A stretch of DNA of 63,815 bases, counting the filler. It is 11 parts of 11 records of this genome, joined end to end, with 100 filler letters (N's around TTAATTAATTAA, not from the genome) between each part and the next. Parts side by side here need not be neighbours in the genome. Positions count along the whole stretch, not along the records: positions 8,797 to 14,085 come from SRR15195285_4402; 10 more parts are not named here. One strand, 5' to 3'. The notes beneath the pieces were generated by a model. That model made no database searches and had not been told where the DNA came from. It saw only the letters and a program-made list of their open reading frames with translations. This document shows positions 9,736 to 12,700 of this stretch, one piece after another; position 1 is the first letter of the stretch, and each line of letters begins with the position of its first letter. The position numbers were made by a program, and so were the translations under genes.

Positions 9736-12700
9736 ATGGAGGAAGGCACACCGCCCATCCTCGCAGAGCTGCAGGGGCTGCCGCTCGGGCAGTTGCTGCA
9801 GAAGGCCGAGTTCCTGGGTGCCGACGAGGAGGCGCTGGATGGGGCCGAGTCAAAGCTCGCGGTCATCGCTCTGATCGTTGCGAAAGTCGAGGAGCAGGCC
9901 GCAGCCGAGGAGCACGCCACGCGACGCGCTCGGCTGACGAAAGAGCTTGGCAGCATGACGCTGCGCGCTCTGCATCGGAAGGCACTGCAGCTGGGCGCGG
10001 ACAAGCAACAGATGGACGAGGCGGAGGACAAGGAAGCGTTGATCGCACTCATCCTGGAGCTCCCACTTGCCAATATGCGTGTATCGGCAGAGGAGCCGCA
10101 GCCAGAGCCAGAAGACCAGCCAGAGCCAGACGATGGGGACATGACGAGGACTACGTCCGAGCCACACCCACCGTACAGGCCGTTAGACATATCGCACCCG
10201 TTCCGCTCGTGCTTGGACAGGGCGTACGTCCAGAAGGAGATTCGGTGGGCCAAGCAGTACAAGAAGAAGATCATCACCGTGTTCGAAAAGGAGCATCACC
10301 GACCTGGGTTTTTCGACTATTCAGTCGCGGCGGAGAAGTACAGCGGGACAGAGTGGGAGTTCATACTCGGGATTGATGCGATCCCCTACCAGCGCGACCA
10401 GTTCCTTGCCGACGCAATGATGGCGAACATACTGGCGAAGGCTACCACAACGGATGTTCGCGCGGCAGACAATCCGATCAACCCGCCAGGCGTCTGGGAG
10501 TTCTTTTTGAGTCACCACCAGGCGCTCGGAGGAGACCAGATGAAAACCTTGTCGCTGCTTTTCGAGCGCAGCAAGAAGACGGTCTGGTATGATAACGGAC
10601 AGCTGGACAAGAGCGAGAAAGCGATGGAAGAGGGCGTCAAGCACTGCAAGAACTTCGTCCTGTTGCTTACAGCGGAGGCTGTCACAGCTGCTCCACGGCA
10701 GTCGCTGAGTGTCGCCCCTGAGCCTGCAGATCAACATCAGCCGATGAGCCCGACTTTGCCAGTGTTCATTGCCCACCGCGGTTCCTCGGCCGACGTGGTG
10801 TGTGCCGAGCTGCTGCAGGAGCACCTGCCAGGTGCGTCGGTGGGGCCAGCGTCTGACATCCCAGATGACGCACAGGTCATTGTGTCCCTGCTCTGCCACG
10901 ATGAGGCGACGTTTGAGCAGATCCGCCTGGATTCGGACTCTATGCGGCAGGCTCTGGCTGCTGTGTTCCGACGCAAGCAGGTCGTCCTTCCAATTGTGGA
11001 TAGCAGCTTCTCGACGGAGATGCTGGAGGGCTTGCCAGACGACATCCGCTCACTTGGCCGGCAGCTGTTCGTCCCTGTCGACTGGCAGAACATTGACCAG
11101 GGAGTGCGGACGCTGCGTGACTGCATCGAACAGGTAAGAAAGACGGACATCCCACCAGTGCTCCGCGAGTACCTTGAGACCGTAATCAAGCACACAGAGA
11201 CGTTCAAGGATCCGTGCACCCAGGAGGTCATCCACACAGAAACGCAGTGCGTGCCACTGAAACTGCTCAAACACCGGGAGTTGGAAGAATCACGCAAGCA
11301 CTCGTCCAAGCAAATCGATGAGACGGACAGAATGCTGATGCGCCGACGGCTCGGGCTCGGCGGGACGATCGGCTACGGCAGCGAACTTCTAAGCCAGTCC
11401 TTTCATTCTGTGCGCGAGGCCGAGGTCCACTTTCAGGATGCTCGTGATGGTCACGATGGCGTGGCAATGATGATCGTGTCAGTCATCGTCGGCCCAGCCG
11501 CGTGCGGCAAGACGACACTGCTAAACCGCATCGCTTGCGGCTACGCCAAGGATGCACTTTGCGGTTGCCCGGGAGCGATGGTGCCATACGTGATCCGCGT
11601 GATGGCATTCTCGCGCTGGCTGAACAGCAAGACACCGAACACGGCGAGCTTCAAGGAGTACATTTTGGCTGCCCAATGTGCGGGCGATGCAGACTGTGAA
11701 CTCTACTCAAAGCTGATAGATCTATTCGACACAGGTAGGCTTGTCCTGATCTTCGACGGAATTGACGAAGCCGGCACAACACTCGACGAGATCACGAAAT
11801 TCCTGAGTGTTGGCCTGGGCGGCAGCTATGCCGGTCGCATGATCATGTCGAGCCGCGAGTCGCTCTTCGACGAGGCACTCTTCACCGGCTCCCGATTTCA
11901 AATGCTGCAGATCCAGCCACTGACGGAGGCCATGCAGGATGATGTGCTGCGCCGACGGTTCAAGGACAGCACGGATGTGGCTAGCTTCAAGGAGCAGCAG
12001 TCAATCTCCGAGAACCTCAAGGAGATGGGCACGAATCCGATGTTGTTGACACTGCAGATTGGGGTCTTCTTGCTTGAAAGAAAGCAGCTCCCTGAACGTC
12101 GGACAGAGCTGTACGACAAAGGCGTGCGACTGTTGCTCAGGCGCGTCGAGACGACGAATCGGTCCGGACAGAAGGCTGGGGTACGCAGTGTCAAAGACAC
12201 AGTTGCTGCAGTTAAGCGCCCACCCAACAAGCGGCCGACGAAGCTGGACAGAGACGTGGAGGCGCTCATGACTGTGCTATGTCAGACGGGCCATCTCCTG
12301 CATGTCACAGAAAACACGCGTGACTTCGCAGCTGGCACGGTCTATGCCATGCTCGAGAATGACGACACAGACCTCGCAGACCTGCCTCGTGACGCTGCGA
12401 TGGATGCCTGGAAAGATCTACTGCAGGACGGGCGGGGCATCATAATGTGTGTCCAGCAAGATCCAAGTGACTCGATGAATGACACGTGGCGATCGACGCA
12501 CCTGACCCTGCAGGAGTTCTTTGCCGCGAAGCAGTGCGTGGTGAACGCACGAGCCTCAGGATCCTCAGACGACTTGATTCAGCATTTCGATACAGTCTTT
12601 GGTTTAAGTCCATCGCCGTGGTTGCGTGAGGTGCTGCTGATGGTGGCTGAGATGTTGTTGCCAGAAGAGTTTCAGATGTTGGCTGAACATTACATTGATA

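Follow-up and report, generated by a model that had tools for sequence, protein, structure and literature searches.

Near the start of a gene on the plus strand of the window (the whole stretch of DNA that was analysed, 63,815 nucleotides), positions 10204–10674 encode what is probably a SARM1-like TIR domain in a naturally occurring, circularly permuted form, hereafter cpTIR, with a putative role as an NAD+-cleaving enzyme (NADase). TIR domains are shared by bacteria, plants and animals as immune effectors that either cleave NAD+ or signal. The module corresponds to residues 157–313 of the encoded protein (P0001), which resembles the nucleotide-binding leucine-rich-repeat receptors (NLRs), and its structural elements follow each other in the order alphaC-betaD-alphaD-betaE-alphaE, linker, betaA-alphaA-betaB-alphaB-betaC, i.e., with the two halves of the canonical fold swapped:

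10204–10443, plus strand: part 1 of the permuted TIR, the canonical C-terminal half (alphaC, betaD, alphaD, betaE, alphaE), residues 157–236; half-profile E-value of 2e-42, canonical profile, hhalign and AlphaFold2
10237–10239, plus strand: codon GAG of Glu168, the equivalent of the TIR NADase catalytic glutamate according to the alignment via canonical relatives
10444–10485, plus strand: new connecting linker, residues 237–250, joining the former C-terminus (alphaE) with the former N-terminus (betaA)
10486–10674, plus strand: part 2 of the permuted TIR, the canonical N-terminal half (betaA, alphaA, betaB, BB-loop, alphaB, betaC), residues 251–313; half-profile E-value of 4.3e-35, canonical profile, hhalign and matches to TIR structures in the PDB

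Order of the halves and predicted fold

A Hidden Markov Model (HMM) built from 12 canonical-order relatives (hereafter the canonical HMM) matches P0001 twice in hmmsearch, with residues 159–242 falling on HMM positions 149–231 (E-value: 3.2e-18) and residues 251–314 on positions 85–148 (2.5e-23). The two matches join at HMM position 148/149, and no profile position is lost or duplicated. The same swap is recovered by hhalign when the profile of the permuted family (alignment A1, 46 rows) is aligned to that of the canonical relatives (alignment A3, 12 rows): permuted columns 107–170 correspond to canonical columns 2–65 for the N-terminal half (probability: 99.85; E-value: 7.7e-31), and permuted columns 9–91 to canonical columns 60–141 for the C-terminal half (probability: 99.59; E-value: 4.3e-24). 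Likewise, in phmmer searches with a 200-residue stretch carrying the module, canonical-order proteins have query residues 114–180 directly followed by query residues 25–105; in P0121, residues 19–82 match the second half of the query and residues 86–172 its first half. Such relatives exceed the Pfam TIR_2 cut-off over profile positions 1–108/115, and are therefore ordinary canonical-order TIRs. As judged from these profiles, the agreement of both halves with the canonical TIR is far beyond chance. With respect to membership in the TIR superfamily, both halves of cpTIR match the profile of relatives that pass TIR_2, while the module itself scores below the TIR_2 gathering threshold and departs from its linear order. 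Run directly against the PDB, phmmer with the 200-residue stretch returned only a chance-level match to twinfilin (E-value: 1.1).

The permutation is a feature of a whole family and not a one-off. Among 182 related proteins scanned with the canonical HMM, the swapped pair of halves is present in 93, whereas a full canonical-order alignment is found in 18 (12 of which are the training rows of the HMM and match by construction), the other 71 being fragmentary or limited to one half. The position of the break is sharply defined, the C-terminal part beginning at HMM position 149–150 in 75 of 94 pairs and the N-terminal part ending at position 146–148 in 82 of 94. When 180 of these proteins (P0001 and P0002 left out) were classified, 100 could be aligned without interruption across alphaE, the loop and betaA, and seven had the same order with a long loop that splits the alignment; 12 were in canonical order and 61 had one half only, mostly as short fragments.

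The structure of the module was predicted with AlphaFold2 from the 46-row alignment. The model forms one compact domain (mean predicted local distance difference test, pLDDT: 96.2; predicted template modelling score, pTM: 0.91) without any low-confidence segment, and holds five strand segments and the expected helices, which is compatible with a single five-stranded TIR-like domain. Its elements are as follows (numbering of the 172-residue query, in which residue n is residue n+148 of P0001):

15–26: helix, alphaC
30–36: strand, betaD
47–54 and 60–63: helices, alphaD region
68–69: bridge, betaE
74–87: helix, alphaE
88–105: loop, ordered
106–111: strand, betaA
114–130: helix, alphaA
135–136: bridge, betaB
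146–154: helix, alphaB
156–163: strand, betaC

The original prediction, made from the DNA letters, had described a circularly permuted TIR keeping the glutamate of alphaC, and this description agrees with the sequence profiles, the single-domain model and the family-wide arrangement. All the motifs that it listed are present at their coordinates, including the GAG of 10237–10239 (codon 168, Glu), and the AlphaFold2 model, a check that it had proposed, concurs with every one of its secondary-structure assignments.

Conserved glutamate and possible mode of action

Glu168 is invariant in alignment A1. In the larger set of units used for the tree described below, a glutamate occupies the same column in 87 of the 88 permuted units and in 13 of the 14 canonical-order units, an aromatic residue (Tyr, Phe or Trp) stands four positions before it in 81 of the 88 permuted units, and the motifs 'FLSH' of betaA and 'WYD' of betaB are near-invariant across them. 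In the hhalign columns, 'RPYVQKEIRWA' of cpTIR aligns with 'RPF[CV]QKE.RWA' of the canonical relatives, which itself falls on 'DWVHKEIVTA' of SARM1 and TIR-1 and on 'WPQKEL' of 3h16. Glu642 of SARM1, along with its bacterial and plant equivalents, is established as the catalytic residue of the NADase. Searched against the PDB, the profile of the canonical relatives retrieves whole TIR domains, i.e., those of Caenorhabditis elegans TIR-1 (residues 563–711; E-value: 6.9e-8), SARM1, 3h16, BtTir and AbTir, and the permuted-family profile has 12 matches at E ≤ 1, each of them likewise a TIR domain, aligned over the N-terminal half only. This pattern of purifying selection at the pocket fits an active site without proving activity, and it is from these residues that we infer a NADase function for cpTIR.

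The chain begins with alphaC, some 10 residues ahead of Glu168, and ends right after betaC; the cut lies exactly between betaC and alphaC, and a variable loop bridges the old C-terminus to the old N-terminus. According to the proposed mechanism, the C-terminal repeats of the host protein would sense a trigger, the NACHT domain would oligomerise upon nucleotide binding and thereby cluster the cpTIR domains, and these may then build composite active sites around Glu168. Cleavage of NAD+ would then kill the cell or trigger immune signalling, either by depletion or by way of a signal derived from ADP-ribose (ADPR). Receptors combining a TIR with a STAND module (signal transduction ATPases with numerous domains) are known to be activated by induced proximity, and the tethering of TIRs to sensors is central to current activation models; by analogy, we infer that cpTIR is activated by oligomerisation and serves in immunity. 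A two-copy complex prediction of cpTIR, in which the alignment was not used, scored 0.01 and carries no weight either way.

The same permuted fold might instead act as something other than a NADase, either as a homotypic adaptor or scaffold, in the manner of the animal TLR/MyD88 TIRs, or as an enzyme whose glutamate serves another reaction, such as the synthesis of 2′,3′-cyclic nucleotide monophosphates from nucleic acids or base exchange. The very diverse fusion partners (kinase, PH, EF-hand, NACHT and numerous further Pfam accessions) would suit an interaction module, the second TIR-like domain, located behind cpTIR in at least six proteins, could be its binding partner, and the case for NADase activity is itself drawn from sequence. 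Nevertheless, the near-universal retention of the glutamate and of the aromatic residue at –4, the near-invariance of the pocket motifs and the fact that the closest solved relatives by profile are the NAD+ hydrolases SARM1, TIR-1, AbTir and 3h16 all argue for an enzyme of that kind, and adaptor TIRs generally lack this glutamate. We thus regard an adaptor, or an enzyme with another reaction, as unlikely.

Taking the NADase reading further, cpTIR might tentatively be seen as a lineage-specific, unrecognised class of TIR enzyme, in which both chain ends have moved to the betaC-alphaC loop, by the glutamate and the BB-loop, so that flanking linkers or neighbouring domains, such as the TIR-like domain behind it in this gene, could directly gate the active site and the module could be inserted into nearly any protein; it could then belong to a large hidden network of NAD+-based death or immunity in Picozoa-like marine protists, missed by censuses relying on linear HMMs. 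We consider this extension less likely than not. In canonical TIRs, both tethers are at the betaA/alphaE pole; speculatively, chain ends lying beside the active site may matter both for regulation and for the insertion of the module into other proteins. If true, such insertability would account for the spread of cpTIR into NACHT, kinase, PH, EF-hand and other architectures.

Family, origin and weight of the evidence

Homologues were collected with a word-indexed search of longer proteins (52 matches) and with HMMER, run exhaustively over 1.84 billion representatives (418 proteins reached E ≤ 1e-3 and 149 of them E ≤ 1e-10; the best 150 are listed). In BLASTP and MAFFT alignments, homology spans query residues ~21 to ~178–180, setting in shortly ahead of alphaC and stopping where betaC ends, whatever the flanks. 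The module is 45–85% identical across about 100 proteins, and its flanks are not conserved; it is a self-contained unit of ~158 residues, the loop between the halves ranging from 6 to 76 residues (median: 15) in 88 complete units. Its position in the host is free, e.g., residues 2–173 of 1575 in P0006 and 252–425 of 427 in P0012; since many records are fragments, a terminal position calls for some caution. In the 52-protein set, the partner domains with confirmed names include NACHT, NPHP3_N, AAA_16, PH and EF-hand; many further accessions presumably stand for kinase, ankyrin, FYVE, PARP, caspase-like and helicase domains.

As for their origin, the sequences derive from marine metagenomes and from single-cell assemblies that bear a Picozoa label. 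Within the 52-protein set, 18 carry the EukProt labels COSAG01–06 or SAG22, the sole full label shown being Picozoa sp. (P0055), and the rest are metagenome records from ENA, JGI, Logan and NCBI. The canonical relative P0176 bears the label of a dinoflagellate transcriptome in EukProt. Scans of 185,579 prokaryote species genomes and of IMG/VR, run with the single protein and with A1, returned no relative of cpTIR, but these scans are pattern-based and therefore weak evidence of absence. A search of short proteins yielded metagenome fragments only, while a look-up in the ESM Atlas led to eukaryotic TIR_2 clusters (score: 0.94–0.95), with Haptophyta given for 2–4 members, which we treat as a lead only. 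The search of sequencing runs recovered small shares only (at most 0.12 of the words), from which no habitat or strain is claimed. A ThsB_TIR match in the C-terminal half of P0003 (residues 147–169 on profile positions 72–94; E-value: 0.006), no part of which passes by itself, was rejected as too weak.

Several members of the family combine the halves in other ways. P0055 has the arrangement C-N-C, its last N+C pair aligning as one full canonical TIR (125 bits), P0033 reads C-N-c and P0015 reads N-C-N; P0003 carries two permuted modules (C-N...C-N), and P0167 two full canonical TIRs in tandem. P0173 is also among the proteins with one-and-a-half or tandem arrangements. To judge from their sequences, the one-and-a-half and tandem forms look like intermediates of permutation by duplication. 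The original prediction had derived the domain from the trimming of a TIR-TIR tandem, and the existence of C-N-C, N-C-N and TIR-TIR forms is consistent with this origin without proving it.

A phylogenetic tree was inferred from the two half-alignments for 102 distinct units, of which 88 are permuted and 14 have the canonical order; P0002, a single duplicate and any unit covering less than 80% of one or the other half were left out. The permuted units, all 88 of them, group together in a clade whose only other members are the two alternative parses of P0055 and P0015, and the node joining this clade with its canonical sister group (six proteins) has a support of 0.987. Most likely, a TIR-TIR tandem of a marine protist lineage gave rise to cpTIR on a single occasion, and the module then spread into many architectures.

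The one-and-a-half and tandem forms, together with the sub-threshold Pfam scores of P0001, might alternatively be taken to mean that the halves are remnants of a decaying TIR tandem that do not fold together and survive as a non-functional relic or linker. This is very improbable, considering that the module keeps its sequence identity and sharp common boundaries between unconserved flanks, that AlphaFold2 models a single domain with high confidence, and that the profile is complete across the breakpoint. Finally, that an assembly or gene-model artefact (a mis-join, a collapsed repeat or hidden introns) mimics the permutation is hardly credible: although the window consists of short contigs from a fragmented assembly and the public proteins appear to be plain calls of open reading frames (ORFs), the same order recurs on many independent contigs (ENA, JGI, Logan, NCBI, EukProt), the 1450 readable residues of P0001 are 100% identical to P0002, a public protein of 1913 residues in a separate 17-kb record, the reading frame crosses the module without stop or frame change, and RNA-library contigs lie over it.

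The latter are metatranscriptome contigs from three libraries. One, with 87% identity, spans 10327–10506 (betaE, alphaE, the loop and the opening codons of betaA), others cover 10484–10633 (four differences) and 10639–10772, and near-identical pieces are found further on at 10927–11099 and 11113–11363. RNA data had been put forward in the original prediction as a means to exclude hidden exons; no joints are reported in the contigs over the module, which makes them supportive but weak evidence against an artefact. Gene stretches without cover by RNA contigs carry no meaning. The RNA contig of one relative has a 3-base insertion (GCC) at 10112, in the Pro/Glu-rich linker, which fits a freely varying linker.

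Coming back to cpTIR as a permuted TIR with NADase activity, a number of observations weigh against it. Pfam TIR_2 matches P0001 over profile positions 1–65 (or 1–92) only, at residues 256–313/346, with 19.3–21.9 bits for a cut-off of 28, and the C-terminal half alone has no Pfam match at E ≤ 10 (nor have residues 1–135 and 321–555). The score stays below the gathering threshold because the permutation lets a linear HMM score one half only, and the expectation that standard HMMs would report two fragments did not hold, Pfam giving the N-terminal half, below threshold, and nothing for the other. The case for the fold is made from the secondary structure and confidence scores of the AlphaFold2 model. 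Foldseek returns no match of the permuted model in the PDB at E ≤ 1e-3, its TIR matches being limited to about 60 columns (SARM1 6o0u_A, 61 columns with a root-mean-square deviation of 1.9 Å; BtTir 7uxr_A, 60; TIR-1 chimera 8p2l_I, 59); such half-length matches fit a sequential aligner facing a permutant, but are no positive proof of the fold. Concerning activity, the C-terminal half has no direct match to solved TIRs with the permuted-family profile, so that the link to the catalytic glutamate runs via the canonical relatives, one of the 88 permuted units has a Val in the glutamate column, and the NADase claim is based on residue conservation only. The node uniting the permuted units is weakly supported (0.41), so that a single origin, though the simplest reading, is not firmly shown. 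Lastly, the RNA contigs over the module are relatives or strains (85–97% identical), and RNA libraries can hold DNA.

Host protein and comparison with known systems

The module occurs once in the window (tblastn within the window), in an open frame that extends over 9736–14133 on the plus strand and is cut at 14085 because the corresponding piece (8797–14085) ends there, an N spacer coming next. The remaining features of the gene are:

9736–14085, plus strand: ORF of the NLR-like protein P0001 (1450 readable residues), incomplete at its 3′ end; full form P0002 (1913 residues)
9736–10083, plus strand: N-terminal region, residues 1–116, with two copies of a helical motif of ~40 residues, from the translation; no Pfam match
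10084–10203, plus strand: Pro/Glu-rich linker before the module, residues 117–156, unconserved among homologues
10762–11142, plus strand: second TIR-like domain (predicted), canonical order, divergent, residues 343–469; AlphaFold2 and Foldseek
11476–11967, plus strand: NACHT NTPase domain, residues 581–744; Pfam NACHT, 39.2 bits for a cut-off of 26.7, E-value of 8e-10
12856–13770, plus strand: C-terminal helical repeats, presumed sensor, residues ~1041–1345; by eye in the translation, with approximate boundaries

The host is a STAND/NLR-like protein composed of cpTIR, a TIR-like domain, a NACHT and helical repeats. Both nucleotide-binding motifs of the NACHT are intact in the translation (Walker A: GPAACGKT; Walker B: LIFDGIDE), while the C-terminal repeats match no Pfam repeat family (i.e., not LRR, TPR or WD40 according to Pfam) and are followed by a Pro/Glu-rich tail. 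The N-terminal motif has the form Leu-Gly-Ala-Asp ... Ala-Leu-Ile-Ala-Leu-Ile and belongs to no Pfam family. The original prediction had placed Pro/Glu-rich linkers on both flanks of the module; this stands for the upstream side (residues 117–156), whereas on the downstream side a linker gives way to a second TIR-like domain, which the original prediction had missed.

This domain (residues 343–469) begins after a linker of ~30 residues behind cpTIR. AlphaFold2 gives it a canonical-order alpha/beta fold of medium confidence (pLDDT: 72.5), and its Foldseek matches are mostly TIRs (SARM1, RPS4, TIR-1, RUN1, SNC1, SPARTA; E-values: 4e-4 to 5e-3) along with some flavodoxin-like receivers. Despite the poorer model, it matches TIRs over 137–150 columns, because it is in canonical order, and serves in this way as an internal control for the half-length matches of cpTIR. 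It has no Pfam match, its hhalign comparison to TIR profiles is not significant (probability: 2.3%), and a language-model lead points to TIR (score: 0.81). The same domain directly follows cpTIR in P0022, P0027 and P0017, and is found too in P0184 and P0185. On the strength of its model, we call it TIR-like with medium confidence, and it may pair with the permuted TIR.

An ORF of 249 residues on the opposite strand (9528–10277, minus strand) lies across the beginning of the gene and reaches into the first part of the module; it is of low complexity and in all likelihood just a side effect of the high G+C content of the coding strand. Joints are visible in the window as paired runs of 44 N around 12 bases in ten places (5156–5255, 8697–8796, 14086–14185 and seven more), and since the window is a chain of short contigs, its neighbouring genes may not be neighbours in the genome. 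Elsewhere, six long intron-free ORFs encode ordinary eukaryotic proteins:

14186–17571, minus strand: EF-hand protein
21486–24512, minus strand: TRAPPC9
38391–40745, plus strand: tubulin-tyrosine ligase
41538–43454, minus strand: adenylate kinase
47948–52411, minus strand: PX-PH-PATROL1
56735–58417, plus strand: acyl-CoA oxidase

Four further ORFs of more than 500 residues in the window match no Pfam family at E ≤ 1e-4.

The searchable full-text literature holds no description of a permuted TIR, and none linking Picozoa with a TIR domain, subscription journals and supplementary files lying outside this scope, so that a prior description is possible. In those texts of this literature that combine the terms TIR domain, NADase and 'circularly permuted', the word 'permuted' refers to other proteins (Macro domains, chaperones, methylases). 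Judged from its sequence, cpTIR is well supported computationally, as a variant of the TIR domain and not as a new kind of system. It is nonetheless of interest to specialists of TIRs and NLRs, a natural permutant that keeps the catalytic pocket being a ready means to tell those features of TIR assembly that require a given chain connectivity from those that do not. Linear profiles see half of such domains, often below threshold, and TIR censuses of protists are therefore likely to be undercounts. The family also points to a rich, NLR-like and TIR-based repertoire in an uncultured and barely studied eukaryotic lineage, while the tandem and one-and-a-half forms together offer an unusually complete snapshot of a duplication-and-trimming route.

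The known systems closest to cpTIR include the canonical TIR_2 proteins of marine protists (P0121, P0170, P0158, P0176 and others), which are sister to the permuted clade in the tree. They share with cpTIR the motifs FF[IL]SH.QA.GGDQ, VWYD, ME.GV, RP[FY].QKE.RWA, YQR[RD] and AM, and differ by their betaA-to-alphaE order, their abutting halves and their scores above the TIR_2 cut-off. Among solved structures, the TIR of SARM1/TIR-1 (6o0u, 8p2m) matches the profile of these canonical relatives best. Despite a low identity, it has in common with cpTIR the alphaC motif ('WVHKEIVTA' versus 'YVQKEIRWA'), betaA and the Asp at the start of the BB-loop, and the N-terminal half of cpTIR superposes on 6o0u_A with 1.9 Å over 61 columns. 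In cpTIR, however, the halves are swapped and the termini lie between betaC and alphaC, whereas those of SARM1 lie before betaA and after alphaE; moreover, the context is a NACHT instead of the ARM-SAM of SARM1. The bacterial TIR NADases (AbTir 7uwg/8g83, PdTIR 3h16, BtTir 7uxr) are matched over betaA-betaC by both the permuted and the canonical profiles, and their glutamate motif is aligned by the profile of the canonical relatives, but they are more distant, prokaryotic and in canonical order. As to overall architecture, the host protein resembles the TIR-STAND receptors, such as plant TIR-NB-ARC-LRR and bacterial TIR-NACHT/Avs-like proteins, in its N-terminal TIR effector, STAND NTPase and C-terminal repeats. 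It departs from them by its permuted TIR, its second TIR-like domain, its repeats without a Pfam match to LRR, TPR or WD40 and its Picozoa label.

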